From: an uncultured cyanobacterium
GTDB taxonomy: Bacteria; Cyanobacteriota; Cyanobacteriia; Cyanobacteriales; Cyanobacteriaceae
DNA: 64,000 nucleotides
Direction of reading: 5' to 3'
NCBI GenBank assembly: GCA_963749915.1
Contig: CAVVOP010000022.1
Location: forward strand, 160,001-224,000
The position numbers and the translations under genes were made by a program. The notes beneath the pieces were generated by a model, which ran no database searches, was not told the DNA's origin, and worked only from the letters and a program-made list of their open reading frames with translations. This document shows, piece after piece, positions 2,997 through 19,478 of this stretch (positions are counted from its first letter, which is position 1; each line of letters starts with the position of its first letter).

Positions 2997-3070
2997 CGGG
3001 GCGTAGCGCAGCTTGGTAGCGCACCACTTTGGGGTAGTGGGGGTCGTGGGTTCAAATCCCGCCGCTCCGA
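2997..3070 (+). tRNA. trnP: tRNA-Pro(GGG), attachment site of the CAST
   Basis: Cloverleaf; anticodon arm CCACT-TTGGGGT-AGTGG; T arm GGTTCAAATCC; CCA not encoded. Confidence 0.97.
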
Positions 3071-3079
3071 TTTATGTTT

Positions 3080-3146
3080 TGTACATTCAATAATTAATTG
3101 TCGTTGTTCACACATTATTGTCGCTGTTTAACAAAATAATTTCGTT
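3080..3146 (+). mobile_element. CAST left end (tRNA-proximal) with three tandem TnsB-binding sites
   Basis: TGTACA terminus, then ...AATTGTCGTT, ...TATTGTCGCT, ...AATTTCGTT; inverted match to 18092-18137. Confidence 0.9.
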
Positions 3147-3256
3147 AAGTAATTTTTTTGTTGAACTTAGCATGTTCTTTATATTACGTCACATAGAAAT
3201 TCTGCAATACCTTGTTTGTTCGCAGGATTTCATAACTGTGTTAAAAGAGGATACAA

Positions 3257-3283
3257 ACCCCAAAGTCGTGCGCCTTTCAATCT
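3257..3283 (-). CRISPR. Delocalized truncated repeat plus 17-nt homing spacer against tRNA-Pro
   Basis: Minus strand AGATTGAAAG + GCGCACGACTTTGGGGT; 16/17 match to 3019-3035, which follows PAM GGTA. Confidence 0.92.
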
Positions 3284-3473
3284 TACTCACACTTTAAATC
3301 ATATCATTTTCTGAAGATAGATGTGAAATAAAATATGTCTATTCCCAATTTTCCTTTTTTCCACAAGCTACTTTTCTCGCTTTCAATACTCTATCCATAT
3401 CTATCAATCTACACAAAATACGAACAAGAATGTAAGAACACATACAGTTATTGTTTTATGCTTGAAGCATCCC

Positions 3474-3728
3474 CTCTCAATCTACAAAACACTAATTAGA
3501 GCATTTAAACCTTATTGGAGCAATTAGAAACAAGTATTCTGAACACTTTCAATCTACCAAACACTAATCAGAGTATTGAAACGAAAAGGTATCTGAATTT
3601 ATTTATCGAAGGGTCGCTCTTTCAATCTACCAAACACTAATCAGAGTATTGAAACCAAATAAAGATTTAGTTAAAAAAGCGGTAGAAAAAACTTTCAATC
3701 TACCAAACACTAATCAGAGTATTGAAAC
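3474..3728 (-). CRISPR. Type V-K CRISPR array, 37-nt repeat GTTTCAATACTCTGATTAGTGTTTGGTAGATTGAAAG
   Basis: Perfect repeats at 3692-3728, 3619-3655, 3546-3582; 5-mismatch repeat at 3474-3510; spacers 36, 36, 35 nt; further relic repeat at 3401-3437. Confidence 0.95.
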
Positions 3729-3929
3729 TTTACACGCTCAAAGCAACTCACTGAAGGCTTCTCTAACTCAATTTTGACGAACCTATTAAAATTCGGGACA
3801 AAATCAACTTGATTGACCTAAGTTTTTTTAAGTAACACTAAAATAAGTGCCACTCTGTATGATTTTGGCGTTTTTGACGAACCTCCTAGGGAATTTAACC
3901 TCGCTATAGGTTGGTCAAAATTAGTGTGA

Positions 3930-4246
3930 AGTAAGATTCCTTCGGTGAAGAAGGTGATTCAGTAACCATCTCTGTAGTCATCCACATCCTCATTAGAGGA
4001 CTAAGCTCAGAAATAACCTTATTCTTTGCTTTACTTCTTATTGCTGGGAGCGTACCTAACCGATAGAATATAGATAGCATTATCATTTTCTGTCAATATT
4101 TCCTTTCTCTGAGCAAGGTTCAGAGATCGCAGCCTCAGAAGTGGACAGTTACTAGGGTCAGAAAGAATAACTATTGCTTAATAGTCAAACTAACCCACTT
4201 TTTTCACAGTGCAGAGGTTTTGTCTAAACATGGACTGCGACGCTAA
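3930..4246 (-). ncRNA. Cas12k tracrRNA (boundaries approximate)
   Basis: V-K tracr-like blocks on the minus strand: GGGTTAGTTTGACT, CTTTCTGACCCTAGTAACTG, TAGGTACGCTCCCAGCAATAAG, TACTGAATCACC; lies between cas12k and the array. Confidence 0.85.
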
Positions 4247-4251
4247 CTCTT

Positions 4252-4281
4252 ATGTTAATAGTTATGTACTGATTTTGTCAA
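4252..4281 (-). promoter_or_regulatory. Putative tracrRNA promoter
   Basis: TTGACA (4281-4276)-N18-TAACAT (4257-4252) directly upstream of the tracr 5' block. Confidence 0.6.
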
Positions 4282-4296
4282 GGTACTCGGAAAAAT

Positions 4297-6186
4297 TTAG
4301 GCAGATTTTTCCAAGCGACAATTATAACTATTGAGTGCTGTGGTTTTGGCTTTTTCTTGAGGTGTTCCCGATTTAGGTTGGCTGCCAAACTCGATTGCGA
4401 TTCCTTCTTGAGAAGCTAACTGACTAATATATTCGGTTAGTCGGCTATAACTCCACTGGTGTATGTTTTTGCGGTATTCTTTGGCATATTTTTTCTGTGC
4501 TTTCTTGTAACCCATGATTTTAGTTTCTGCTTTGGCTTGAACTTCGCTCAGGATACTTTCTTTGATGTTAGTTAACTTTGGTAAAACAATACTTTGTGCT
4601 TGATAAAATTTAGCCGTTTGTACGATCGCCCTAGCGATTAATCGATCGATGTATTCTCCAAGGTTAGACTCCCCTTTGTTGCTGAATTTGTCTTGTTTTT
4701 GGGGGTGATGTCTTTGCTTAGAAAGTTTGATTTTTTGTTGCCGTTGACGATTGAGAAGTGAATAGTTGTCGCCTAAAAGTTGCTTGATACTTCGATAGAC
4801 GATCGCATCTTGAGTTATTACATTGACAACAGCTACAGTAGCAGGTTTTTGTAATCCAAAACTGACTCCCAGAATAATATTTGGATTTCCCTGATAAACT
4901 TTTTTGTGTGGGCGTGGATAAGAGGTATTAATTCTAGCTAAACTAGATTCTTTTCGTTTTTGATCTGCTAACTGATTGGGAGTAAGTTCTGATTTTTCTT
5001 GATGTTTATCGATTTTTTCTTTTGTCTTTTGGCTTTTTTCTTGTGCTATTTGGTTTGTGCCTTCGGCAGTCCAAAAACGGGTATCAATGGAACATTGTAA
5101 ATATAGTTTGTGAACTTCCCAAGGATTTCCCTTTCCTTGTTCTTCACGCCATAATATTCTGGCAGAACGAAGAGTAAATAAAGCACTACTATATTTACTG
5201 GAATCTTGTTTATAAGTTTGTTGATCTTCCCAAAAACGTTGAAACCAATGAAGCTGACGACGATCGCATCTTAGTTCAAATTGATGTTTACTTAGACCAT
5301 TGAATTTGACTAATAAATGTCCTCGTTGATCTTGTATCCAAGTTAAATCGATATTAGTTTCATAGGCGATAGGATAGGGAATAACTGGAGATTTTTTCAA
5401 AAGACGACTTTGCCACTCAGATGCTTCTTCTTCTGTTTCGGGAACTTTGTCAGATGTGATCGTCAAGGTTTCTAACCATTTGTCTTGGGTTAAATCTCTG
5501 CCTTGGGGAAGTCTATTTTCCAGTTGTTGTTGATGTCTTTCGATTTCAATTTCCTTTTTTCTACGATATTGTTGGAATTGCTTTATGTCTTCAATTTCAT
5601 CGGGTATTTGACATTGATTTTTAAGTAGGTAGGCAATGGCACATCGATCAAGAATGTCTGTTCGTAACTCGTATTCATTCATAAAATGTTGGAACAAATC
5701 ATTGTCTTTTTTTTGTTTCTTCTTTTTTCCTTGTTTGTCTGACTTTAGGTTATTTTGAGCTTCTTTGAGTATTTTGTGGGCTTGATCGACAATTTTTTCA
5801 ATATTACTCCCTGATATTGCTTCTAACTCAGCATCACTTTTGAGAATATTAAGCCATCTCTGTTTACCTTCTATTTTTCTTTGTAGTCTAGCTTGAACGG
5901 CAAACCATGATTTGTATATGTAATGGGTAAGAGCGATCGCACTGGTAAAAAAACGTCCTGGTTGATTTTGATACTGGGGTAAATCCCTTAAAGGTTGGCA
6001 TATATCCTTAATTGGTTTTTGAGATATTTTTTTTGTCTTGAACCATTCTTCAAATTCTTCATGATGAGAGACTCTATAGAGTAATTCGTTAACAAGGGGG
6101 GTATTTTTTTCGCTCATCAGTTTCCAAAGATAACGCAGTGAGTCTGACGGAGCATATAAGCGACATTCAATAGTTTTCTGGCTCAT
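4297..6186 (-). CDS. cas12k: Type V-K effector Cas12k (C2c5); likely start ATG 6186, ORF track extends to 6204
   Basis: MSQKTIECRL N-terminus, KNTPLVNELL, QPGRF, RRQLHWFQRF; inactive RuvC (GVSFG, IVLPK); HQWSYSRL; GAGG SD at 6196-6199. Confidence 0.96.
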   Translation of the reverse strand: MSQKTIECRLYAPSDSLRYLWKLMSEKNTPLVNELLYRVSHHEEFEEWFKTKKISQKPIKDICQPLRDLPQYQNQPGRFFTSAIALTHYIYKSWFAVQARLQRKIEGKQRWLNILKSDAELEAISGSNIEKIVDQAHKILKEAQNNLKSDKQGKKKKQKKDNDLFQHFMNEYELRTDILDRCAIAYLLKNQCQIPDEIEDIKQFQQYRRKKEIEIERHQQQLENRLPQGRDLTQDKWLETLTITSDKVPETEEEASEWQSRLLKKSPVIPYPIAYETNIDLTWIQDQRGHLLVKFNGLSKHQFELRCDRRQLHWFQRFWEDQQTYKQDSSKYSSALFTLRSARILWREEQGKGNPWEVHKLYLQCSIDTRFWTAEGTNQIAQEKSQKTKEKIDKHQEKSELTPNQLADQKRKESSLARINTSYPRPHKKVYQGNPNIILGVSFGLQKPATVAVVNVITQDAIVYRSIKQLLGDNYSLLNRQRQQKIKLSKQRHHPQKQDKFSNKGESNLGEYIDRLIARAIVQTAKFYQAQSIVLPKLTNIKESILSEVQAKAETKIMGYKKAQKKYAKEYRKNIHQWSYSRLTEYISQLASQEGIAIEFGSQPKSGTPQEKAKTTALNSYNCRLEKSA

Positions 6187-6327
6187 AATTTTTATCCTCA
6201 ACAAGAGACTAAATCTAATATAGCATGACCAAAGATGTTAATTAGTGGCTAATAAGTGGCAATAACTAGAATCAGATCTTTTCGTTATAGGATCGATAAA
6301 GTATAAAGAAAAACTAATGAGAGAGTA

Positions 6328-6495
6328 ATGACAAAGAGAGTGTATTTAACACTAGCGGATAAGGTTTATGATGCGTTGGAAAGGTGGGCAAATGATCAGG
6401 GGCGCCCCGTTGCCAATTTAGCCGCCTATTTGGTGGAAAGGGCGATCGAAGATGCTGAAAATGAGGGGAAAATACCTCCCTTGACTAAAAAATAA
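6328..6495 (+). CDS. 55-aa Arc/CopG-like ribbon-helix-helix regulator divergent from cas12k (absent from ORF track)
   Basis: MTKRVYLTLADKVYDALERWANDQGRPVANLAAYLVERAIEDAENEGKIPPLTKK; beta-strand-helix-helix pattern. Confidence 0.85.
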   Translation: MTKRVYLTLADKVYDALERWANDQGRPVANLAAYLVERAIEDAENEGKIPPLTKK

Positions 6496-6589
6496 GGAAA
6501 TTTTTGTTTTCAGATGGGAAAAATGCTTTGTATCTTTGGTAAAATTCTATTTCTACGGTTGTTAGGCACAAACATAAAAAGTCTTTAAA

Positions 6590-8182
6590 ATGGCAAAAAA
6601 CAAAGAAAATAATAACAATACAACTGACAATAAAAGTTTAGAAAGTTGGATTTGGGATGCGGCTTGTAGCATTCGAGGGGTTCAGGAAGCGTCTAAGTAT
6701 AAAGATTTTATATTACCTTTAATTTTTACGAAACGTCTTTGTGATGTTTTTGATGATGAGTTAAATCGTATTGCTAAGAAGATTAAAACTCGTGCTAAAG
6801 CCTTTGAGTTTGTTGAAAATGATCATGAGTTAGTCAGATTTTATTTACCTCTGAAACCGAAAAATCCTGATGATGATGTTTGGAAAGTGATAAGAACTTT
6901 AAGCGATGCCAACACAGAAAAGAGCGATTCTTCTGTAAGCTACGGTGAAAGGGTGACTAATTATTTAAGAGATATTGCCAAAGAGAATCCATTATTAAAG
7001 GGAATTTTAGATAGAGTTGATTTTAATGCGACAACTCACGGCGAAAGGGATTTAGATGACGATCGCCTGTCAAATTTGATTGAGAAAATTTCTGAGAAAA
7101 GATTAGGGTTAAATGATGTTGAACCTGATATTATCGGACGTAGCTATGAGTATTTAATTCGCAAGTTTGCTGAAAGTGGTGGGCAGTCGGCAGGGGAGTT
7201 TTATACGCCGATGGAAGTGGGGATGATAATGGCGAAAATTATGCAACCTAAGCCAAGTATGGAAATTTATGATCCTTGTTGTGGTTCGGCAGGTTTATTA
7301 ATTAAGTGTCAATTGGTTTTACAGGAAGAACAGGGAGATAATCAATACGCACCATTGCAGTTATATGGACAGGAATATACTGCTAATACTTGGGCAATGG
7401 CGAATATGAATATGATTATTCATGATATGGAGGGAAAAATTGAAATAGGTGATTCTTTTAAAAATCCCAAGTTTAAGTATAAAGGGAAGTTGAGACAATT
7501 TGATCTAGTTGTGGCTAATCCGATGTGGAATCAAAACTGGTTCACTGAAAAGGATTATGATAACGATGAATGGGGGCGTTTTCCAAAGGGGGCAGGTTTC
7601 CCCGGTTCAAAAGCTGATTGGGGTTGGGTTCAACATATTAATGCTTCTTTGAAAGATGATGGTAAAGCGGCGATCGTTCTTGATACGGGGGCGGTTTCGA
7701 GGGGTTCTGGGAATGCTAACAGGGATAAGGAAAAGGATGTGAGAAAGTGGTTTATTGAACAAGATTTAATTGAAGGGGTGATTTATTTGCCTGAAAATCT
7801 TTTTTATAACACTTCTGCACCGGGTATCATTTTAATCTTAAATAAGGCTAAATCCGCAGAAAAAAAAGATAAGTTATTTTTTATTAATGCCAGTTTAGAG
7901 TTTGCTAAGGGCGATCCGAAAAACTATATTCCTGATGAGGGTATTAATCGCATTGCTGAGACTTTTTTAAGTTGGCAAGAAATCGATAAGTTTAGTTGTA
8001 TTGTTGATAAGGCTAAAATTGTTGAGAATGATTATAATATCTCTCCTTCTCGTTATATTCATGTAGCTGAGGCTGAAGAATTTAGACCAATTAGTGAGAT
8101 TTTGCTAGAGTTGGATGAGTTGGAGAAGGAAGCAGAAACAACAAATAAGAATTTAATGCAGGTTTTAAGTAAGTTTAGGTAA
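6590..8182 (+). CDS. hsdM: Type I restriction-modification methyltransferase subunit
   Basis: LESWIWDAACSIRG, GEFYTP, YDPCCGSAG, motif IV NPMW. Confidence 0.93.
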   Translation: MAKNKENNNNTTDNKSLESWIWDAACSIRGVQEASKYKDFILPLIFTKRLCDVFDDELNRIAKKIKTRAKAFEFVENDHELVRFYLPLKPKNPDDDVWKVIRTLSDANTEKSDSSVSYGERVTNYLRDIAKENPLLKGILDRVDFNATTHGERDLDDDRLSNLIEKISEKRLGLNDVEPDIIGRSYEYLIRKFAESGGQSAGEFYTPMEVGMIMAKIMQPKPSMEIYDPCCGSAGLLIKCQLVLQEEQGDNQYAPLQLYGQEYTANTWAMANMNMIIHDMEGKIEIGDSFKNPKFKYKGKLRQFDLVVANPMWNQNWFTEKDYDNDEWGRFPKGAGFPGSKADWGWVQHINASLKDDGKAAIVLDTGAVSRGSGNANRDKEKDVRKWFIEQDLIEGVIYLPENLFYNTSAPGIILILNKAKSAEKKDKLFFINASLEFAKGDPKNYIPDEGINRIAETFLSWQEIDKFSCIVDKAKIVENDYNISPSRYIHVAEAEEFRPISEILLELDELEKEAETTNKNLMQVLSKFR

Positions 8183-8222
8183 TTTTCATTAGGCAACAAA
8201 TAGACAATTAAAGAAAATTTAT

Positions 8223-9518
8223 ATGCTTTTATCTCCAATAAAAAATATCCCCAAAGACTGGAAAATAGTTGAACTACAGAATGCAGGTGAAGTTATTTAT
8301 GGAATTCAAGCATCTGTTGCTAATAACATTGAGCCAATCGGAACAAAAATATTAACTAACAAAAATATTACTCTTGATGGTGGTTTTGATTTAGAAAAAA
8401 TTAACTATTTTGAATTGAAAACAAAGCGACATAAAGAAACCATTTTAAAACAAGGTGATATTCTTTTTAATTGGCGTAGTGGTAGTAAAGATCATGTAGG
8501 AAAAACAGCTTATTTTAACTTAGATGGTCAATATACTCATTCTTCCTTTATTCTTAGAATACGTTGCAACACTAATACCATTTATGGTAAGTATTGTTAC
8601 TATTATTTGCTATGGTTGCATAAATCAAAGTATTTTCTAAAACTTCAAACTTATGCTATCAATGCAAAATTCAATAAGAGTGCAGTTAATTTATTACCAA
8701 TTATTCTTCCCCCAATTGAAGAACAAATAAAAATAGTCAATGTTTTAAGTTTAGTACAAAAAGCAATTAGTGAACAAGAAAAGGCGATCGCTTTAACAAC
8801 AGAATTAAAAAAGGCGTTAATGCAAAAACTATTTACCGAAGGGCTAAATAATGAACCTCAAAAAATGACTGAAATAGGTCTTATTCCTGAAAGTTGGGAG
8901 GTTAAAGAATTAAAATATTTTATTGAAATACCTCAATATGGTTTTACTGATAGTGCAAGTGATAAAGGAAATACCAAATTTTTAAGAATTACAGATATTA
9001 CAGAATTTGGAGTAAATTGGAATACAGTACCATTTTGCAATTGTCCAATTGAGAAAATCGATCAATATTTATTAAAAGACAATGACATTGTTTTTGCTCG
9101 AATTGGTGCAACAACTGGAAAAAGTTATATTATTAAAAATCCTCCTTTTTCGGTATTTGCCTCATATTTAATTAGAGTTAGAGCAATAAAAATAGATCCC
9201 GATTATTTATTTCAATTTTTTCAAACACAAATTTATTGGCAACAAATTAATGCTAGAAAAGACGACAGTTTGAAGAAAGGTGTCAACGGTTCTGTATTAA
9301 AAAATATTCTGATTCCAATTCCATTAGAAAAAGAGCAAAAAGAAATTGCAAAAATATTTCAAACTTTTGAGCAAGAAACTAATTTATTAATGATAAAAAA
9401 ATCACAATTACAAGAGTTATTTAAAACTTTATTACATCAATTAATGACTGCTCAAATAAGAGTAGATGAATTAGATTTAAGTGTATTAGAGACTCAAATA
9501 GAGGAGGTTAGAAATTAA
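8223..9518 (+). CDS. hsdS: Type I R-M specificity subunit with two TRDs
   Basis: IPKDW/IPESW repeats, LPPIEEQ and IPLEKEQ, LKKALMQKLFT. Confidence 0.92.
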   Translation: MLLSPIKNIPKDWKIVELQNAGEVIYGIQASVANNIEPIGTKILTNKNITLDGGFDLEKINYFELKTKRHKETILKQGDILFNWRSGSKDHVGKTAYFNLDGQYTHSSFILRIRCNTNTIYGKYCYYYLLWLHKSKYFLKLQTYAINAKFNKSAVNLLPIILPPIEEQIKIVNVLSLVQKAISEQEKAIALTTELKKALMQKLFTEGLNNEPQKMTEIGLIPESWEVKELKYFIEIPQYGFTDSASDKGNTKFLRITDITEFGVNWNTVPFCNCPIEKIDQYLLKDNDIVFARIGATTGKSYIIKNPPFSVFASYLIRVRAIKIDPDYLFQFFQTQIYWQQINARKDDSLKKGVNGSVLKNILIPIPLEKEQKEIAKIFQTFEQETNLLMIKKSQLQELFKTLLHQLMTAQIRVDELDLSVLETQIEEVRN

Positions 9519-11462
9519 ATGCTAACCTTTGATGAAATTTGGGAAATGTTAACTACCCAAGATGAAAGTACAGAAATAGAAGCGAAAAAAGCCTCTGATA
9601 TGGGTAAAAGCATTTTGGAAACTATTAGTGCTTTTTCCAATGAATCAGGTTTAGGTGGCGGTTATTTATTATTAGGAATAAAATCAGCAGAAGATAGTCA
9701 AAATAATATTTATGAGATTGAAGGTTTAGCAGAACCTGATAAAATTCAAAGAGATTTAGCTTGTCAATGTCGAGAAGTTTTTAACATTCCCATTCGCCCT
9801 CAAATAGAAACTATTACAAAAGAAGGGAAAACGGTTATTGTCGCTTTTATTCCCGAAGCTCAACCCTCAGAGAAACCAGTTTATATTACTAAAAGAGGAC
9901 TACCCAAAGGAGCATTTAGACGTATAGGCTCAACGGATCAAAAATGCACAGAACGAGATTTAGAATTATTCTATCAAGAAAGAAGTAATCAAACTTTTGA
10001 CCAAACTCCCGTTAAAGATGCAAGTTTAGATGATTTTGAGTCACAGGCTATTGATGCTTATCGCCGTATTAGAAAACAAGTAAACCCCAATGCTAGTGAA
10101 CTTAACTATAGCGATCGTGATTTATTAGATTCTTTATATGCCATAACCAAACATCCCAATCAAAAAGGAGAATATTGCCCTACTGTAGCAGGATTAATTT
10201 TATTTGGTAAAGAAATAGCCTTAAGAAAGCATTTTCCTTTACAGCGTGTTGATTATATTGTAGTTGAAGGAAAGGAATGGGTAGAGAATCCAGATAAACG
10301 TTATCAAAGTGTGATTGAAATTCGTCAGCCTTTATTATTGGCTATTCCTCGACTAACAGCTTTAGTTTTAAACGATTTACCTAAAGCCTTTAATCTTCCT
10401 GAAGATCAGATAAATCGGCAAGATATTCCTTTAATTCCTAGTGCGGTTATTAGAGAAGCTATTGTTAACGCTGTTATGCACAGGGATTATCGTATTCGTA
10501 GCCCAATTCAGATTATTCGATATTCAGATCGTTTAGAACTTCGTAACGCTGGTTATTCTTTAAAATCAATAGACGAATTAGATCAACCAAGTTCAAAAAC
10601 TCGTAATGAAAAAATAGCTGAAACTCTCCATGAGTTAAATATAGCCGAAACTAAAGGATTTGGTATTAGAACCATGTTAGAAAATATGCGACAAGCAAAT
10701 CTAACTATTCCTTTATTTGAATCAAGTAGAGAAAAAGACTCTTTTTGTCTTACTTTATTTACTCATCATTTTTTAGAGCAAGAAGATATTGACTGGTTAA
10801 CTCAATTTAAAGATCTTAACTTAAGTAAAGAAGAAACAAATGCTTTAGTTGTAATTAAAAAAACAGGTAAAATAAATAATTCAATTTATCGTTATGTTAA
10901 TGATGTTGATATAAATAAAGCAAGTAAGCAATTAATAAAATTAAGGGATTTAGGTTTAATTAATCAAAATGGTAAAAGCATAGCCACTTATTACACCATC
11001 AAGCCTGAATTTTTATCGGGACAGTTAGAAAAACCTTATCAAGATAGTAGTACAGATAATCAAGACACCTTATCAGGACAGTCAGAAAAACCTTATCAGG
11101 AAGACAATACAGGCAATCAAGACACTTTATCAGGACAGTTAGAAAAACCTTATCAAGACAGTAGTACAAGTCAACAGGGACAGTTAACTCTTGATTTATT
11201 TCCGCCTCTAAGCAAAAAAAAACTTGAAGAAAGATTAAATAAAATTGGTAAACGAACCGAACCAGAGGAAATGAAAAGCCTAATATTGGAATTGTGCAGA
11301 ATAAAGCCTTATTCATCTAGTGAATTAGAAAAATTGTTAAAACGAAAGCGAAAATATTTATTAGAACAATATCTTAAGCCTTTAATTGATGACAAGTTAC
11401 TAGAATACACTAACCCCAATAGTCCTAACGATCCTCATCAAACTTATCGCACAAAACAATAA
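9519..11462 (+). CDS. Schlafen/AlbA_2 + HATPase_c_4 (RecG C-terminal-like) + HTH protein
   Basis: ESTEIEAK, ETISAFSN.GGGYLLLGI, REAIVNAVMHRDY, ETKGFGI, C-terminal PNDPHQTY. Confidence 0.8.
   Translation: MLTFDEIWEMLTTQDESTEIEAKKASDMGKSILETISAFSNESGLGGGYLLLGIKSAEDSQNNIYEIEGLAEPDKIQRDLACQCREVFNIPIRPQIETITKEGKTVIVAFIPEAQPSEKPVYITKRGLPKGAFRRIGSTDQKCTERDLELFYQERSNQTFDQTPVKDASLDDFESQAIDAYRRIRKQVNPNASELNYSDRDLLDSLYAITKHPNQKGEYCPTVAGLILFGKEIALRKHFPLQRVDYIVVEGKEWVENPDKRYQSVIEIRQPLLLAIPRLTALVLNDLPKAFNLPEDQINRQDIPLIPSAVIREAIVNAVMHRDYRIRSPIQIIRYSDRLELRNAGYSLKSIDELDQPSSKTRNEKIAETLHELNIAETKGFGIRTMLENMRQANLTIPLFESSREKDSFCLTLFTHHFLEQEDIDWLTQFKDLNLSKEETNALVVIKKTGKINNSIYRYVNDVDINKASKQLIKLRDLGLINQNGKSIATYYTIKPEFLSGQLEKPYQDSSTDNQDTLSGQSEKPYQEDNTGNQDTLSGQLEKPYQDSSTSQQGQLTLDLFPPLSKKKLEERLNKIGKRTEPEEMKSLILELCRIKPYSSSELEKLLKRKRKYLLEQYLKPLIDDKLLEYTNPNSPNDPHQTYRTKQ
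11013..11168 (+). repeat. In-frame 57-bp tandem repeat (about 2.7 copies; LSGQLEKPYQDSSTDNQDT)
   Basis: Units start at 11013, 11070 and 11127. Confidence 0.9.
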
Positions 11463-11485
11463 ATTATCTTTTTCTTCTCTCAAAT

Positions 11486-14428
11486 ATGCCTAAACCAACT
11501 GAACATAAAACCGTCCAAGATCGCATCTTAACCTATGCCCAAGAAATAGGTTGGACATTTGTACCTCGTAAAGAAGCCGAAGCTAAAAGGGGTTTTAACG
11601 CCCCTTTACCCACGAGTTTGGGAAAACAAAAGGGCGTTGAAATTCAACACAAAGCCCAACAAGGATCATTATATTTTGATGATACTTTGTACCAAAAAGT
11701 CAAAGAATTTAATCCTCATTACAACGAAACCAAAGGGGATTTAATTAAACGCCTCAATAACTTATCCCTCGACATTTACGGTAATCGAGATTTTCTGAAC
11801 CTTCTACAAAATCAAGGTAAATACTTTTATCAAGCTGAGAATAGAGAACTAGATTTAATTTTAGTGGATTACGATCGCTCTGAAAATAATATTTATGAAG
11901 TTACAGAAGAATATTATACCCATAACGGGAAATACGGCACAAGGGAAGATGTGGTATTTTTAATTAATGGTATTTCAGTATTGGTCATTGAATGTAAAAA
12001 CGCCAATAAGAATGAGGCGATCGCATTAGGAATTGATCAAATTAGACGTTATCACCGAGAAACCCCAGAGTTATTTATTCCCCAAATGTTATTTACAGCT
12101 ACAGAGGCGATCGGTTTTGCCTATGGCGTAACTTGGAATATCGTCAGACGCAATATTTTTAACTGGAAAGATGAAGAAATTGGGCAACTAGAAAACAAAA
12201 TTAAGACTTTTTGCCATCCCCAAATAATCTTAAAATTTCTGAAAAATTATATTATCTTTGCGGAAAAAGACGAAACTTTACAAAAATATATTCTAAAACA
12301 ACATCAAACCTTAGCTATCGAACAAGTAATTAACCGTTGTCACGATGAAACTAAATTTAGGGGATTAGTGTGGCACACTCAGGGAAGCGGAAAAACCTTC
12401 ACCATGATTAAAACTGCCGAAATGCTCTTTAAAGCCCCAGAAAGCGAAAAACCCACTATTATTCTAATGATCGATCGCAACGAATTAGAAGATCAAATGT
12501 TACGCAACCTGAATAACTTAGGGGTTAACAATATTCGCCATGCCGATCGCATAAAAACCCTTGTGGAATTACTCGAAAACGATTATCGAGGTATTATTAT
12601 CACCATGATTCATAAATTCCGAGAAATGCCTCCTAACATCAACACAAGAAAAAATATTTATATTTTGATAGATGAGGCACACCGCACCACAGGAGGAGAT
12701 TTAGGCACATTTTTAATGGCAGGTTTGCCCAATAGCACAATTATTGGCTTTACTGGTACACCCATTGACAAAACCAATCAAGGAAAAGGTACTTTCAAGG
12801 TTTTTGGGGTTGATGATGAAAAAGGTTATTTACATAAATACTCGATCGCTGAAAGTATTGAAGATGGTACAACTCTACCCCTTTACTATAACATCGCTCC
12901 TAATCAATTATTAGTCCCTGCGGAAATAATGGAGCAAGAATTTCTTGATTTAGTAGAAACAGAAGGGATAAACGATATAAGTGAACTCAATAAAATTTTA
13001 GATCGAGCAGTTAATTTAAAGAATTTTCTCAAAGCAGATCAAAGAATTGATCAAGTAGCAAAATATGTTGCTGAACATTATACAACCAATGTCGAACCGT
13101 TAGGATATAAAGCCTTTTTAGTAGCCGTCGATCGCCCTGCTTGTGCTAAATATAAAGAAGCCTTAGATCGTTATTTACCCCCTGAATATTCGGCGGTAGT
13201 CTATACAGGTAATAACAACGATAGTGAAGAACTAAAGGCTTACCATCTCGATGATAAAACAGAGAAGCAAATCCGCAAAAACTTCGCTCGTTTTGGAGAA
13301 TATCCGAAAATTTTAATAGTAACGGAAAAACTATTAACAGGTTATGACGCACCATTACTATATGCCATGTATCTGGATAAACCAATGCGAGATCATACCC
13401 TCTTACAAGCGATCGCCCGTGTTAATCGCCCTTATGAGAATGAAACAGAGGAGATGCTTAAACCTCATGGCTTTGTCTTAGATTTTGTGGGTATTTTTGA
13501 TAAATTGGAAAAAGCCTTAGCCTTTGATAGTGAAGAAGTTAACGCTATTGTTAAAGATTTACAATTACTTAAAAATTTATTCAAAATCAAAATTGAGCAA
13601 TTAGTTCCCACTTACTTGCCCCTAATTAAACATAACTTTAACGATCAAGATGTCGATAATTTAATTGAATTTTTCAGGGAAAAAGAACAACGCAAAGGAT
13701 TTATTAAAGGCTATAAAGAGTTAGAAATGCTTTATGAAGTTATATCACCAGATGCTTTTTTACGCCCTTATATTGACGATTATACTAGCCTCTGTGGCAT
13801 TTATCAGGTGGTTCGTAATGCTTATACTCGCAGAATTTATCTCGATCGAGAAGTGAAACGCAAAACTGATGAAATAGTACAACAAAATATTGGGACAACG
13901 GCGATCGCCTCTATTAATGAATTTATCGAAATTAATGCAGAGACAATTGAAACCATTAAAAACAAAAAAAATGGTAACACAACCAAAGTAATTAACTTGG
14001 TAAAAAGTATTGAAAAAATAGCAGAAGAAAATAAAGATGATCCCTTTTTAATCGCTATGGCACAAAGAGCAAAGGCGATCGAAGAAAGATTTGAAACAAG
14101 ACAAGTTGATACTCAAGAAACTTTAGATTTATTATTTCAAGAAATCAAAAATAATGAACAAAGGAAAAAGGAACAATCCGCCCAAGGCTTTGATAATTTA
14201 AGCTATTTTGTTTATAAAATCTTAAAAGATGCTGGAATAGAAAGCCCAGAAGAAGTAAGTCATCAGATAAAACAAGCATTTGTTGATTATCCTAACTGGA
14301 AGAAAAGTGAAAGAGAATTAAGAGAATTACGAAAAGAAGTTACTTTTTCTATCTATGAAAAAATAGATGATTTAGATCAAGTTACTGATATTGTTAATCA
14401 GTTATTCAACCTCTTAAATCAAAATTAA
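11486..14428 (+). CDS. hsdR: Type I R-M restriction/motor subunit
   Basis: D...IECK nuclease motif, TQGSGKT Walker A, DEAH, FTGTP, LLTGYDAP, QAIARVNR. Confidence 0.94.
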   Translation: MPKPTEHKTVQDRILTYAQEIGWTFVPRKEAEAKRGFNAPLPTSLGKQKGVEIQHKAQQGSLYFDDTLYQKVKEFNPHYNETKGDLIKRLNNLSLDIYGNRDFLNLLQNQGKYFYQAENRELDLILVDYDRSENNIYEVTEEYYTHNGKYGTREDVVFLINGISVLVIECKNANKNEAIALGIDQIRRYHRETPELFIPQMLFTATEAIGFAYGVTWNIVRRNIFNWKDEEIGQLENKIKTFCHPQIILKFLKNYIIFAEKDETLQKYILKQHQTLAIEQVINRCHDETKFRGLVWHTQGSGKTFTMIKTAEMLFKAPESEKPTIILMIDRNELEDQMLRNLNNLGVNNIRHADRIKTLVELLENDYRGIIITMIHKFREMPPNINTRKNIYILIDEAHRTTGGDLGTFLMAGLPNSTIIGFTGTPIDKTNQGKGTFKVFGVDDEKGYLHKYSIAESIEDGTTLPLYYNIAPNQLLVPAEIMEQEFLDLVETEGINDISELNKILDRAVNLKNFLKADQRIDQVAKYVAEHYTTNVEPLGYKAFLVAVDRPACAKYKEALDRYLPPEYSAVVYTGNNNDSEELKAYHLDDKTEKQIRKNFARFGEYPKILIVTEKLLTGYDAPLLYAMYLDKPMRDHTLLQAIARVNRPYENETEEMLKPHGFVLDFVGIFDKLEKALAFDSEEVNAIVKDLQLLKNLFKIKIEQLVPTYLPLIKHNFNDQDVDNLIEFFREKEQRKGFIKGYKELEMLYEVISPDAFLRPYIDDYTSLCGIYQVVRNAYTRRIYLDREVKRKTDEIVQQNIGTTAIASINEFIEINAETIETIKNKKNGNTTKVINLVKSIEKIAEENKDDPFLIAMAQRAKAIEERFETRQVDTQETLDLLFQEIKNNEQRKKEQSAQGFDNLSYFVYKILKDAGIESPEEVSHQIKQAFVDYPNWKKSERELRELRKEVTFSIYEKIDDLDQVTDIVNQLFNLLNQN

Positions 14429-14430
14429 TT

Positions 14431-14766
14431 ATGCTTTCAATCGATAAACAAAAAACGTGGAAAAATACTGAAGACTTGAAAAATACAGTTTGGACATGGA
14501 GCGATCGCATTAATGTGCAAGTCAAAGAGATTCAACTACGTCAAATGAAAAATAAATGGGCTTCTATCTCTACGACAGGTAGATTAACTTTAAATAAAGA
14601 ATTGATGGATTTACCTCAAGAATTAGGAGAATTTGTAATTGTACATGAATTAATTCATCTACTCGTACCTAATCACAGCAAATTGTTTAAATGTTATATG
14701 TCAGTCTATTTACCAGATTGGCAAGATCGAGAAAAACGCTTAAAAAAGTTATCTTCTCAAAAATAA
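14431..14766 (+). CDS. Short YgjP/DUF45 (M48-like) HExxH metallohydrolase
   Basis: KWASIS...VIVHELIHLLVPNH; this family often follows hsdR. Confidence 0.8.
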   Translation: MLSIDKQKTWKNTEDLKNTVWTWSDRINVQVKEIQLRQMKNKWASISTTGRLTLNKELMDLPQELGEFVIVHELIHLLVPNHSKLFKCYMSVYLPDWQDREKRLKKLSSQK

Positions 14767-14788
14767 ACAATGTAAATCAAATCAGGAT

Positions 14789-15295
14789 TTATTTTTGCTT
14801 TTTACTCATCTTCGTAAATGATAAATGACAGCGATCGCATCTACCATCTTTCCATAGAGAAGGAACAGAAAAAGAAGTTCCACAGTTAGGACATTTAGAA
14901 AGTAATTTCACCTTATGAAGATCGCATCCTCTTTTCTTCTTATCTTGCCATTGTAAACGATGATAGGGAGCTTCTTGATAACACATTCCACACAGCATAA
15001 TCGGTTTAATTTGCGTCACCATACCCTGATAAGGAAACATTTCCCGAAGGCGATCGACATCCAACATCACGACTGTTGCTAATTTTTCTAATTCTTGTGG
15101 CGTAGGAAAGGGAGAAAAATAAAACTTTTCCCATCGAGCCAAAATAGCCCCCAATCCTGCCACTTCACCCAATCCACTTGGTGCGGAGAAACGATTTCCT
15201 TTCGCACGGCGAAATCTGCCCAAGAAATGACTAATACTTTCCCCTTCAAATGGCTCAACTTTGGTTAACCACAACTCACTTTCTCTTTCTTTCAT
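14789..15295 (-). CDS. tniQ: TniQ family protein
   Basis: EPFEGESISHFLGRFRR, multiple CxxC/CxxH zinc ligands. Confidence 0.95.
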   Translation of the reverse strand: MKERESELWLTKVEPFEGESISHFLGRFRRAKGNRFSAPSGLGEVAGLGAILARWEKFYFSPFPTPQELEKLATVVMLDVDRLREMFPYQGMVTQIKPIMLCGMCYQEAPYHRLQWQDKKKRGCDLHKVKLLSKCPNCGTSFSVPSLWKDGRCDRCHLSFTKMSKKQK

Positions 15296-16136
15296 AAGAC
15301 CATTTTGTTGATGCTATAACTTGTTTTAATATCTCAGGAGTAATGTGTGTTTCTCCCCTCGAAAGGGAACGAATTGCCGCCTTGCGTAAAATCATGTCTA
15401 AACGTCCAATCAATTTACGAGTAGCAGTTTTGAGTAGTTTTAAATTGTCTGCTTCCGCTAAATTTGAAGGTTCAGGTAATCTCAGGACATTTTTCTCCCA
15501 AACTTGCACAATCATTTTAAACTCCTTATCATCAAGGCGATCTAGTTCGTATTCTTCTAAGAAACGATTAGCAACCTGTTCATCTCTTTTGACAACGGCT
15601 TCTAAACGACTGGTTGTACCCACCAACAAAACAGATATATTCAACTCATCTTCATCGTAAACGTGCCTGACATCAGCAAAAGTTTCTTGCTTTAAATGAT
15701 TAGCCTCATCCACAATCAACATCTCGCAACCATGAATCGCTAAACCATCGAGAGTCCTTTCCCTCAAATCCGATATTGTTCCTTTGGTGGGCTTATTCAA
15801 TGCCTTGAGTATCTTGATGAAAAAATCTCTTGAGCCACATTTTTCAGGTACTTGAATATAAACCACTGGCTTAATCCGTTGCTTTTGCCCTTGTTTTGAC
15901 TTATTGTATCTGGCGGCAAAAGATTTACAAGTAACTGTTTTCCCACAACGAGATTCCCCCACTAATAACCCTGTCATCCTAGAAAGAATCAACTCATACA
16001 TCCAACCGTGACACTGTTTTACCTGTTCAAACTCAATATATGGATCTTTCCTTAATCGCTCAATTTCGGCTTGAATTTCAGCAGTGATAGTAGGAAAGTT
16101 ACCAAACTGGTGTGCGATCGTCTCTACATTTGTCAT
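15276..16136 (-). CDS. tnsC: TnsC AAA+ ATPase
   Basis: Walker A GESRCGKT, Walker B LIVDEA, IGRLDMILR. Confidence 0.95.
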   Translation of the reverse strand: MTNVETIAHQFGNFPTITAEIQAEIERLRKDPYIEFEQVKQCHGWMYELILSRMTGLLVGESRCGKTVTCKSFAARYNKSKQGQKQRIKPVVYIQVPEKCGSRDFFIKILKALNKPTKGTISDLRERTLDGLAIHGCEMLIVDEANHLKQETFADVRHVYDEDELNISVLLVGTTSRLEAVVKRDEQVANRFLEEYELDRLDDKEFKMIVQVWEKNVLRLPEPSNLAEADNLKLLKTATRKLIGRLDMILRKAAIRSLSRGETHITPEILKQVIASTKWSYERKRK

Positions 16137-16159
16137 TTTTTTGTCCTCAACAAACTGAA

Positions 16160-17851
16160 TTAATGATCATCAAAAAGGTCATCCATGTATGACACTTCGT
16201 AAGTAGGTATTTCTTCATCTAAGTCCTCATCATTTTCATCTTCAACTATTTCAGGTTCAGGAATTGTCAATTTTTCCGCCATAGTTTTAGTTGGATTAAC
16301 CTCTTTGTGAGCTACCTGACGGCGTTCTTGTCGATCCTTTTTCGTGAGAGTTTCCAACAAAACTTCCCTTTCTAACATGGCATCAAGTACCGCATCATTA
16401 TTGATTTTTTCCTGTTCTCGATTGAGATTTTTATTAATCGCCTTCAGTTCACGCAATGACAGACTTTCGGCTTCTAATCCTTGAGCATGGGCATAATCAA
16501 GGAATTTTTCTGTACCGTCATTCAAACGCTCATAAACCAATATTGTCGTTATATCTTCAGGATCATAGCGAATTGAGACGATTTCCCCTGCCATTCCCCG
16601 CAAATGTTCACTTTTATAGGTGATATTTTCAAACTGCAACGTGCCAAACTTCTGAATAGTCCTTCGAGTCTGCCTCATCAAACAAATGTCTAGTTCCCTT
16701 TCTTCATAGGGTTCAGGCTCAACTACTAACCCATTTTCCCACAGTTGTATGCGAGCTTGGTCTTTTCTCCTGCCATCTGGTTTTTGATTATATTCATCAA
16801 CAATATACTTCACCAAGATAAGTTCGAGATCTCTCAGGGTAAGACTAGCATTTTGATCAACATTGTTAGGTCTTTCCTGAACATTTGCACCTGTATAGCC
16901 TGGTAATTCCCTCAACACATTATCATTTAGTGTCCGAAAAAACCTTTCAACAATACCACCATCCGATGGTCTTCTTCTTAAAGAACAAGTAAACCCCAAT
17001 CCCACTGCTATGTGTTCTGTTAGATGAATCGAACGAAAATCCTTGCCACCATCTGTATAAAAATATGTGGGAGTACCATAAGCAGTCCATTCGTTACGCA
17101 AAGAATATTCTGAGCCATAATATTTAGGTAAAATAGCATGACGTAATGCTAAAGCGTCTATTTGAGAACTAGGACTCTCAAAGCCTAAATAAAATCCCAT
17201 TAAACAACGAGAATATGAGTCAATAATGATTGTTAACCAAGGACGATCTAACACCCCAAACTCATCGACCAATCTCACATCGAGACGAGTATGATCGCAT
17301 TGCCAAACATCATTACTAGCTTCTACTTCAAGTTCTCTACCATCACGAGTCATGTGGGTTAATTTCGAGCCTGAATATCCTGGACTTCTAGCTTTGCGTT
17401 TTTTGTCTTGTTCTTGTACATATTGATCGATAATTCTATAGACTGTTTGATGACTGGGATAATCTTTTTTTTCTAAACCTAATTGTTTAGCACGTCCTTT
17501 GACTTTCAAAAAAACTTGATGGCGAGTAATGCGTTTACCATTTTGATTTCCTTTCTTGTAGGCATCTAAAATGAAATCAAACCACTCTTGATCAATACGG
17601 ATTGTACCTTTATCTGCCCTAGTTTTGATTATGCCCACAAAACCTTCTTCTCGGTATTTTTTCATCAATCTTTCGATGGAACGAATTGATACACCCAACT
17701 TTTCAGCCGCTTGTTGTTTTCTTTCACGATACAAGGTGCGATCGCATGGTTCAATCAGACTTTCAACGACTTCCATTCTCAATTTTACCTCATCGGTAAT
17801 CTGTTCTTCAGAAGGAAGCCTATATACTTTTGGTTGCTTCGATAATGCCAT
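16160..17851 (-). CDS. tnsB: TnsB Mu-like DDE transposase; likely start ATG 17851 (the ORF-track start 17914 lies in the right end)
   Basis: HTH AAEKLGVSIRSIERL; intact DDE residues in WQCDHT, YTDGGKDF, GGIVERFF. Confidence 0.95.
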   Translation of the reverse strand: MALSKQPKVYRLPSEEQITDEVKLRMEVVESLIEPCDRTLYRERKQQAAEKLGVSIRSIERLMKKYREEGFVGIIKTRADKGTIRIDQEWFDFILDAYKKGNQNGKRITRHQVFLKVKGRAKQLGLEKKDYPSHQTVYRIIDQYVQEQDKKRKARSPGYSGSKLTHMTRDGRELEVEASNDVWQCDHTRLDVRLVDEFGVLDRPWLTIIIDSYSRCLMGFYLGFESPSSQIDALALRHAILPKYYGSEYSLRNEWTAYGTPTYFYTDGGKDFRSIHLTEHIAVGLGFTCSLRRRPSDGGIVERFFRTLNDNVLRELPGYTGANVQERPNNVDQNASLTLRDLELILVKYIVDEYNQKPDGRRKDQARIQLWENGLVVEPEPYEERELDICLMRQTRRTIQKFGTLQFENITYKSEHLRGMAGEIVSIRYDPEDITTILVYERLNDGTEKFLDYAHAQGLEAESLSLRELKAINKNLNREQEKINNDAVLDAMLEREVLLETLTKKDRQERRQVAHKEVNPTKTMAEKLTIPEPEIVEDENDEDLDEEIPTYEVSYMDDLFDDH

Positions 17852-17904
17852 TACCCAAACTAATTTACTATTTAACTCTTTTTTTAGAATAGCATTTAGC
17901 CCAA

Positions 17905-18137
17905 GAAACGACAACTAAAATATTAAATTATTCTGCAATGGTCAATTGATCTGATCAAAAAATAAGCGACATTTAAAACTTTAAAAACAATAATAAACGA
18001 CATTTAACTGTTGAAATAAGTTGTCCGATTCCACAAGAACATAAAAAGCACTCTAATCCATATATAATGGCATTTATAGAGATTTTTAATGGCGACAATA
18101 ATGTGTTAAACAGCGACACTTAATTATTGAATGTATA
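17905..18137 (-). mobile_element. CAST right end with about five TnsB sites
   Basis: CGACA cores near 17909, 17967, 17998, 18093, 18114; ends ...TAATTATTGAATGTATA at 18137. Confidence 0.85.
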
Positions 18138-18301
18138 CTTGTTTTAAAAGGGTTTTAGAGATTCTACATATTTCCAGAACTCTTTTCTATTGTCAATAAG
18201 CCGGGCGAAAATAGTTCATTTTAGATAGTTTTAGTTCTATAATTGGTAGATAAAATGAAAGAATCATAAATTTTTGGAGATGTCTATTGCAGAAGGTGTG
18301 C

Positions 18302-18460
18302 GACGATGGTAACTTAGTTTACTGGAGTACAAGAATGGGTAAACATCCCGAAATGCCCCTAAAAACAGCAACACTTCTCAAAAAACAATCTGGGAAATGT
18401 CAGCTATGCGGAAATATTTAGGGATGGAGATAACTTAAACATCGACCACATAATTCCAAA
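18302..18460 (+). pseudogene. Fragment of group II intron-encoded protein (C-terminal HNH region), frameshifted
   Basis: DDGNLVYWSTRMGKHPEMPLKTATLLKKQSGKCQLCG, then in another frame FRDGDNLNIDHIIP. Confidence 0.75.
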
Positions 18461-18476
18461 TCTTTATACTTCCCAC

Positions 18477-19478
18477 CTAAAATTTCACCTTTTTGAATAC
18501 GTTATGTAAAACATTAGCTGATTCTTGTAATAATCTTTCTTCTTCCTCGCTAAGGTTAAGATTGACGGTTTTTAAGATTCCTTTTTCATTGATAACCCTA
18601 GGAATGCTCAGACAAACATCTTCAATACCATATAAACCACTCATCAAACCGCTAACGGTTAAAATCCGTTCTTGTGAGTTTAAAATGGCCTTGACAATAT
18701 CTGTGGTAGCTAAACCAATGGCATAGGAAGTATAACCTTTTCGTCGAATGATCTCGTAAGCGGCATTTTGTACCTGATAAAATATCTTAGATAGTTTACT
18801 TTGTTCATTCTCCTCCAAGTTTGACCATTTATTCGGTATAATTTTCATACCGCCAACGTTAGCGGTACTCCACACAGGCACTTCACTGTCTCCATGTTCA
18901 CCGATAATGTAGGCGTGAACGCTACGGGCATCAATACCCATTTCCTGGGCAATTAATAAACGAAAACGAGCACTATCTAAAACAGTACCAGAACCAATGA
19001 CTCTTGAGTTGGGAAAACCAGTGATTCTTAAGGTGGCATAAGTCATAATATCCACTGGATTGCTAACCACTAAAATAATGGCATCAGGACAATATTTCAC
19101 TACACCTTTTAAAATGTTTTTGTAAATAGCGATATTCCTCTCAACTAAACTAAGACGACTTTCCCCCTCTTTTTGTGCGACTCCGGCGGTGATGATAACT
19201 ATATCAGCATTTTTGCCGACATCGGCAACAGTTCCGGCTTTCAAATCCGTTGGCGGCAGAAAAGACATCCCGTGAGATAAATCCATTATTTCCCCTTCGA
19301 GTTTATCCGTGGCTATATCTTGCAAAATTAATTCATCAAAACAGTCTTGAATTAACAGAGAATAGGCACAGGCTAAACCCACTTGTCCTAAACCGATTAT
19401 CACTCCTTTACGGGGACGAAGAGATGAAGGTTTTTCGGCACAGGGATTAGGTATTAAAATTTTTTCAAACATATTCAA
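18477..19478 (-). CDS. ldh: L-lactate dehydrogenase
   Basis: GLGQVG, TAGVAQKEGESRL, GTVLDSAR, GEHGDS, KGYTSYAIG. Confidence 0.9.
   Translation of the reverse strand: MNMFEKILIPNPCAEKPSSLRPRKGVIIGLGQVGLACAYSLLIQDCFDELILQDIATDKLEGEIMDLSHGMSFLPPTDLKAGTVADVGKNADIVIITAGVAQKEGESRLSLVERNIAIYKNILKGVVKYCPDAIILVVSNPVDIMTYATLRITGFPNSRVIGSGTVLDSARFRLLIAQEMGIDARSVHAYIIGEHGDSEVPVWSTANVGGMKIIPNKWSNLEENEQSKLSKIFYQVQNAAYEIIRRKGYTSYAIGLATTDIVKAILNSQERILTVSGLMSGLYGIEDVCLSIPRVINEKGILKTVNLNLSEEEERLLQESANVLHNVFKKVKF

Follow-up and report, generated by a model that had tools for sequence, protein, structure and literature searches.

Layout of the element

The DNA analysed here (the window) is a stretch of 64,000 nucleotides from an uncultured member of the Cyanobacteriaceae (GenBank assembly GCA_963749915.1, contig CAVVOP010000022.1, positions 160,001 to 224,000), and it contains at positions 3080-18137 a 15,058-bp CRISPR-associated transposon (CAST) of type V-K situated 9 bp behind a tRNA-Pro(GGG) gene. 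The coordinates given in an initial annotation, made from the letters alone, are exact, as the left end starts TGTACA at 3080 and the right end finishes TGTATA at 18137, and every part that it named (ends, genes, trans-activating CRISPR RNA or tracrRNA, array, homing spacer and regulator) lies where it had been placed. The features that define the element and its target are as follows, with protein assignments made against ShCAST of Scytonema hofmanni (PDB 7N3O, 7SVW, 7M99, 7N6I).

2997..3070, plus strand: host tRNA-Pro(GGG) gene, the attachment site, outside the element (ARAGORN, Rfam)
3016..3035, plus strand: protospacer-adjacent motif (PAM) GTA at 3016-3018 and 17-nt homing protospacer at 3019-3035, with 61 bp from PAM to left end
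3080..3146, plus strand: left end with TGTACA at its terminus and TnsB sites at about 3092, 3112 and 3133 (three in all)
3257..3290, minus strand: homing unit, truncated repeat at 3290-3274 and 17-nt spacer at 3273-3257, mismatched to the tRNA at position 7
3474..3728, minus strand: CRISPR array, repeats at 3728-3692, 3655-3619 and 3582-3546 and a degenerate repeat at 3510-3474
3921..4245, minus strand: tracrRNA, about 315-325 nt by its estimated limits, V1-type core with two insertions
4297..6186, minus strand: cas12k, 629 aa, RuvC-dead (family match and alignment to ShCas12k)
14789..15295, minus strand: tniQ, 168 aa (alignment to ShCAST TniQ)
15276..16136, minus strand: tnsC, 286 aa (alignment to ShCAST TnsC)
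16160..17851, minus strand: tnsB, 563 aa from ATG, DDE catalytic residues intact, C-terminal hook resembling those of the subclade
17907..18137, minus strand: right end, five TnsB sites, terminal TG changed to TA (base 18136)

From the left end, the minus strand carries the homing unit, array, tracrRNA and cas12k, followed by a divergent 55-aa regulator gene and five cargo genes, and then by tniQ, tnsC and tnsB, an operon that sits at the right end without tnsA; no open reading frame of at least 60 aa was found between tnsB and the right end. This order agrees with the published V-K layout (PMC9938897). All four CAST genes are open reading frames without stop or frameshift, and they are single-copy in the 4.69-Mb genome, barring a distant TnsB-like transposase (28% identity) on contig C15 (C15:25516-26610). 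Assignment of the locus as a genuine, nearly complete type V-K CAST is close to certain. The reading preferred here, at a probability of about 0.8, is that of a V1-group type V-K CAST that was inserted by RNA-guided homing beside tRNA-Pro(GGG) and whose DNA sites are now decaying while its genes stay open, because of the family matches, the residue alignments and the single PAM-flanked genomic match of the homing spacer.

Proteins of the transposition machinery

Cas12k matches the NCBIfam model V_Cas12k (NF038191) with 864 bits (cut-off 150) and aligns over its full length to ShCas12k (E 1.5e-189). Its residues S442, P536 and P609 align with the dead RuvC triad of ShCas12k (S452, P546 and P619, with no D-E-D), and R78 and R411 occupy PAM-reading positions (R78 and R421 in ShCas12k, named in 10.1101/2021.07.06.451292). 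TnsB aligns to ShTnsB (E 1.6e-174), its D186, D267 and E302 corresponding to the catalytic D205, D287 and E321 (PMC9371665); TnsC has both Walker A and Walker B motifs, and TniQ has its zinc ligands. These alignments, with the spacer match described below, bear out the class and the homing target that had been proposed. The description of the element as compact does not set it apart, the proteins being ShCAST-sized (629, 563, 286 and 168 aa for Cas12k, TnsB, TnsC and TniQ versus 639, 584, 276 and 167 aa) and the tracrRNA longer.

Relative to the element of genome G006, the numbers of synonymous and non-synonymous changed codons are 133 and 43 in tnsB, 57 and 18 in tnsC, and, at a nearly even balance, 11 and 9 in tniQ; of the columns conserved among ten subclade homologues, 0 of 144 are altered in TnsC and 1 of 85 in TniQ. 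The CAST genes are thus apparently under purifying selection, to judge from these counts.

Subgroup and relatives

Among the best 120 of 988 TnsB matches, about 44 have 60-91% identity and the rest mostly 49-55%, and the closest named protein is that of Geminocystis herdmanii (91%). A quick maximum-likelihood TnsB tree with 74 rows (from the upper group 39 full-length members, counting the query; 9 locus-derived sequences; from the lower group a one-in-three sample; midpoint root, ShTnsB outside the row set) separates the upper from the lower group with a Shimodaira-Hasegawa approximate likelihood ratio (SH-aLRT) support of 100. By TnsB sequence the element belongs to a well-supported subclade characterized by a tracrRNA of about 315 nt and, often, an RHH_5 regulator. 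Of 401 genomes of the order, 11 yielded a TnsC of this type, the present one among them, and Cas12k forms a singleton cluster (best full-length match 62%, named matches 49-53%, G007 71%).

The element has a V1 tracrRNA core and V1-like Cas12k and TnsB, and two members of its TnsB subclade are labelled V1 in a published table (PMC12416283 Dataset 3): Rippkaea orientalis PCC 8801_(2) and Allocoleopsis franciscana PCC 7113_(2), with TnsB identities of 69% and 63% (from the proteins named for these two organisms, P0129 and P0158), tracrRNAs of 311 and 317 nt and the same D-loop homing register. They differ in homing to tRNA-Pro(CGG), in a regulator entry of NA, and in Cas12k, which is about half identical (P0007, 53%). 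The available parts of the literature examined report no functional test of either system, and none was found there for the subclade as a whole. Filing under V-K_V2 was rejected: an RHH_5/Arc_2 regulator and an enlarged tracrRNA are common to both, but V-K_V2, with Nostocales hosts, has a 416-447 nt tracrRNA with four extra stems and a shifted anti-repeat 2, a distance of 54 nt and a TnsC of about 306 aa (PMC12416283), whereas here the tracrRNA is about 315 nt long with a V1-type core and anti-repeat 2 at its end, TnsC has 286 aa and the distance is 61 bp. In genome G556 a TnsB of the subclade is paired with a short standard tracrRNA, and therefore the modules reassort.

ShCAST is alike in gene set and order, dead RuvC, DDE residues, PAM-reading arginines, end architecture, GTN PAM and a distance of about 60 bp, but it belongs to another TnsB/TnsC subclade and has a MerR-type CvkR instead of the RHH_5 regulator; a tracrRNA of about 315 nt with two insertions and a damaged right end distinguish the present element. 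MG64-1 and MG64-6 are V-K orthologs with GTN and rGTN PAMs and 57-67 bp insertion (PMC11906591); the signature strings of this element were not found in the MG64 supplements, in which a positive control worked. The initial annotation had allowed that the element might prove identical to an already characterized system, and none of those compared is (ShCAST by PDB alignment, MG64 by its tables).

Catalogues of V-K examples range from 128 (PMC12416283) to 282 (10.1101/2021.02.06.429022). The GGG and TGG target strings and the repeat and TnsB of the element were not found in the PMC12416283 supplements (first 400 characters of long cells), the 128-system table included, nor the repeat in the PMC9938897 supplements (one file excepted). 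The 282-element supplement lies outside this comparison and may hold relatives.

Homing to tRNA-Pro(GGG)

The homing spacer matches tRNA-Pro(GGG) at 16 of 17 positions behind GTA, with the mismatch at position 7, and the adjacent tRNA is its one GTN-preceded match with at most three mismatches in the 4.69-Mb genome. A further match on contig C21 was dismissed, being in an ordinary gene and without a PAM. A 17-nt anchor, a GTN PAM and a PAM-to-left-end distance of 46-82 nt make up the published V-K pattern (PMC9938897), and the truncated repeat-spacer units or anchor spacers described previously (10.1101/2021.02.06.429022; PMC9938897) likewise combine a repeat remnant of about 13 nt with a 17-nt tRNA spacer and a GTN PAM.

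RNA-guided homing is further supported by relatives with the same ends, which carry spacers for their own, different tRNAs. The element of G006 (TnsB 93%, TnsC 94% and TniQ 95% identical; cas12k lost) lies at tRNA-Pro(CGG) with a spacer match of 17/17, and that of G007 (TnsB 83% identical; cas12k and tnsB interrupted) at tRNA-Pro(TGG) with 16/17. Spacers of other members correspond to tRNA-Pro(CGG) in G250, G630 and G519 and to tRNA-Phe(GAA) in G650, G688, G609 and G500, all in the same D-loop register and, where readable, with 54-70 bp from PAM to end. Arrival at the tRNA by mis-targeting, or by an RNA-independent TnsB-TnsC-TniQ route, with later conversion of the spacer, would agree with the imperfect spacer, with the PAM and first 4-6 protospacer bases that the three tRNA-Pro genes share, and with the strong untargeted route of V-K systems (10.1101/2023.07.14.548620). 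It is nevertheless very unlikely, since the element is oriented, and spaced at 61 bp, in the manner of a guided insertion, and the spacer has one mismatch to the GGG target versus 5 and 7 to the two remaining tRNA-Pro genes.

The loci examined provide 26 distinct anchor-target pairs, of which 17 match perfectly; in two, one of them the present pair, a mismatch falls at position 7 or closer to the PAM. The position-7 mismatch is not unique, row 111 of a published table (PMC12416283) having one, and the available parts of PMC12455611, PMC9798831, 10.1101/2021.07.06.451292 and 10.1101/2023.07.14.548620 yielded no measurement of how Cas12k tolerates it. Neither is tRNA-Pro(GGG) unique as a target, for 3 of 400 other genomes have a related spacer, one of them at tRNA-Pro(GGG). 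The expectation that the PAM could be read from the element's own site holds, GTN being backed by the GTA present and by the conserved R78 and R411; the insertion distance, expected to be legible in the same way, cannot be taken reliably from a single natural site, because subclade relatives in the same register span 54-70 bp and no duplication confirms the junction.

If the element operated as ShCAST does, Cas12k with the tracrRNA and the 17-nt homing CRISPR RNA would bind the D-loop/anticodon arm of the tRNA gene behind GTA, TniQ and host S15 would nucleate a TnsC filament, and TnsB would join the ends, beginning with the left one, some 60 bp downstream. Without TnsA the move would be replicative, and the array guides would steer the element onto plasmids or phages.

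tracrRNA and array

The tracrRNA is located between cas12k and the array of 37-nt repeats, behind a promoter-like site (4281-4252), and finishes with anti-repeat 2 (about 3938-3921). Its folding z is -2.9, and in a consensus of six sequences 14 of 56 predicted pairs change on both sides. By computed energies the pairing of anti-repeat 2 is stronger with the homing repeat than with that of the array (-19.4 versus -15.3 kcal/mol; -9.7 versus -3.8 over 12 nt), a direction seen in 15 of 20 distinct loci and reversed in 5 (related sequences and computed energies). A guide is therefore best modelled on the homing repeat, so that for builders of the system the practical template would be this repeat and not that of the array, which ends GTAGATTGAAAG versus the consensus GNNGGNNTGAAAG (PMC11906591).

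The array comprises three identical repeats and one degenerate repeat, with three spacers of 36, 36 and 35 nt, for which no target was identified in plasmids (best listed E 0.02), phages or the genome; spacer 1 has low-complexity near-matches in the genome. Between array and homing unit there is one further feature.

3380..3414, minus strand: two orphan repeat-tail fragments

These fragments, for which no other genomic match with at most two mismatches behind a GTN PAM was found, are probably the product of array decay. Nostoc phage N1 contains a 19-nt exact match to the array repeat, insignificant alone (E = 9). Matches from a scan with the homing repeat (26 metagenome, 3 viral) were rejected as chance, none lying beside a CAST gene, and a search of genome contigs for related loci returned only the G007 element and one chance match.

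Ends and mobility

The Tn7-like ends have repeated TnsB sites, three on the left and five on the right, and a 27-nt inverted repeat (3082-3108 and 18109-18135, 93% complementary). The initial annotation had hinted at a right-end defect, and the altered terminal base is indeed present in the assembly, whereas all seven relatives with a readable right end begin TGTACA (three further relatives have no end in the stretch examined). The third left-end TnsB site reads TTTCG versus TGTCG in G006 and G007. No target-site duplication was found, the flanks being different and the left flank not repeated after the right end. Terminal TG at both ends together with a 5-bp duplication would mark a mobile copy, and their absence lowers the case for mobility, not for V-K membership. 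The missing duplication, the position-7 spacer mismatch, the altered third left-end site and the type I restriction-modification (R-M) cargo all go beyond the grounds on which the locus had been singled out.

VchCAST depends critically on terminal positions 1-3, and the contacts of V-K TnsB with the TG are base-specific (PMC10201428). Because the TG is lost here, invariant in the relatives, critical in VchCAST and read by V-K TnsB, the element is probably stranded, and by this analogy would not be able to move with its present right end. A fully working element, in which the odd base is an assembly error or is tolerated, is improbable: its four genes are open and apparently under purifying selection, five right-end TnsB sites remain and missing duplications are common in relatives, but the standing of the terminal TG speaks against it, as do the further changes in the third left-end site and the homing spacer.

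Attempts to reconstruct the empty site gave no BLAST match to the right flank in any of 19 other tRNA-Pro(GGG) loci. By eye, a CTTGTTTT-like motif is preceded by about 12 nt at four loci of the same genus and by 9 in this genome, and a few bases may therefore be missing from the junction. The G007 element (L022:600-640, L023:1890-1920) lies 70 bp from its PAM, and the direct repeat at its flanks measures 18 bp, not 5; two independent insertions, each on a different chromosome copy, could have recombined to give it.

Several considerations weigh against a homed element with decaying DNA sites and open genes. The missing duplication is weak evidence of decay, because three of the five relatives with both ends readable on one contig have none (a clean 5-bp duplication is present in G630 and an 18-bp one in G007). 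The evidence on the terminal bases comes by analogy from a type I-F element and from a structure, rather than from a V-K end mutant. The right-end base is without confirmation from reads, and an assembly error is possible: the best word share of any sequencing run was 0.22 (none reached half of the sampled words), and among the listed read-assembled pieces, which are short, none joins the tRNA to the right flank or confirms the base. The array spacers are without a found target, their plasmid, phage and genome matches being weak at best. Finally, private substitutions could cripple the proteins, to judge from conservation: L218H and A495P in Cas12k are at nearly invariant columns (A495P places proline where 111 of 118 homologues carry alanine), and Q280H in TnsB replaces a residue found in 37 of 37 subclade homologues.

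These substitutions would equally fit an element dead at the protein level too, stranded for so long that Cas12k or TnsB function is lost and only the R-M cargo is maintained, which would leave it no source of a tool, an alternative that concerns the proteins only, overlaps the preferred reading and has an appreciable minority share of the probability. It is favoured also by the broken state of the nearest relatives (G006 without cas12k, G007 with cas12k and tnsB interrupted) and by a published screen in which 11 of 13 predicted-complete V-K systems were inactive as native sets and two worked (MG64; PMC11906591), but neither stop nor frameshift interrupts the genes, the residues for catalysis and PAM reading are preserved, and the tally of radical changes at conserved columns is no higher than in relatives. 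Cas12k has five (median 3, 126 rows) and TnsB three (median 2, 38 rows), totals below the 90th percentiles and within the range of relatives; being near the medians, they therefore demonstrate neither integrity nor decay of the proteins. Given the base rate of 2/13, it is rather doubtful, if by no means far-fetched, that a standard assay with consensus ends would find the four proteins to be functional. Use as an RNA-guided tool is a prediction tempered by the same base rate and by the decay in the DNA sites.

Regulator and cargo

Between cas12k and tniQ the element contains the following genes, all on the plus strand.

6328..6495, plus strand: ribbon-helix-helix regulator (RHH_5, PF07878; Pfam 64 bits), 55 aa, divergent from cas12k
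6590..8182, plus strand: hsdM, type I methyltransferase, cargo
8223..9518, plus strand: hsdS, specificity subunit, cargo
9519..11462, plus strand: Schlafen AlbA_2 / HATPase_c_4 / Fic-like_C protein, cargo inside the R-M operon
11486..14428, plus strand: hsdR, type I restriction subunit, cargo
14431..14766, plus strand: short YgjP-like metallopeptidase gene, cargo, covering the C-terminal half of the Pfam model only

RHH_5 is the family called Arc_2 (PMC9938897), a regulator tied to V2 in the text of PMC12416283; of the 20 Arc_2 rows of its Dataset 3, all of the 16 that were compared are V2 by label or by tracrRNA. Close homologues stand beside or near cas12k in four of the nine subclade relatives with a readable cas12k region (G007, G250, G688 and, at 2.9 kb, G519), and also in G443. 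Of the 30 top loci of the regulator family, 26 have no cas12k within 1.5 kb; the family is thus mostly free-standing and was probably recruited separately. The protein probably represses cas12k from the divergent promoter.

By predicted function the type I R-M set is complete, with hsdM, hsdS and hsdR together, and G006 carries an hsdR that is 96-98% identical and split in two pieces. The cargo would defend the cell against phages and may hold the stranded element at its site. The AlbA_2/HATPase gene includes three 57-nt tandem repeats (window 11013-11183) encoding 19-residue units. Beyond the right end, at window 18260-18480, lies a frameshifted fragment, a 36-39 bp piece of which recurs at 11 other places in the genome; we take it to resemble the HNH portion at the C-terminus of a cyanobacterial group II intron protein.

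Home-site change and significance

A change of home site among tRNA-Pro isoacceptors is already published in kind and was rejected as a novelty: isoacceptor switching is documented for V-K elements (10.1101/2021.02.06.429022; PMC12416283), attachment sites do not track Cas12k phylogeny (10.1101/2021.02.06.429022), and V2 rows show switching among Ala isoacceptors (PMC12416283).

The same genome has a second V-K relic (C5:1-1400, L138) behind tRNA-Pro(TGG), with another left-end type and several TnsB sites; its homing unit is followed by a repeat-like unit and then by what, by eye, resembles an insertion sequence transposase. Its homing spacer is identical to that of G007, position-10 mismatch included, which suggests from this one pair that homing cassettes move between elements. 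Also on C5, a short TGTACA-type end remnant behind tRNA-Ala(CGC) (15113-15187, L139) is possibly a third V-K scar. In G017 a V-K-like end remnant (L012:1971-2010) stands behind tRNA-Pro(GGG) at a locus without a matching homing spacer. In G250 a second, distant tnsB/tnsC pair directly follows the homing spacer (G250:C1:3089500-3096500, L131), at the place expected for the left end and tRNA, so that a further Tn7-like element has apparently inserted at or within the left end of that CAST.

A more speculative extension, which we consider unlikely on present evidence, is that the element represents an unnamed third V-K subgroup inside V1, with its own TnsB/TnsC clade, a homing-tuned tracrRNA of about 315 nt, a separately recruited RHH_5 regulator and cassettes swapped whole between co-resident elements, and that with consensus ends it would be a working CAST orthogonal to ShCAST. 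If so, such an element would offer a direct test of home-site change in elements lacking Cas1 and Cas2. One more V-K ortholog matters little, because hundreds are catalogued and several are already tools; the value of this one is as an entry to a divergent branch whose transposase may be orthogonal to ShCAST and whose tracrRNA and repeat differ. The three close elements at three tRNA-Pro genes form a natural series for asking how homing guides get replaced.

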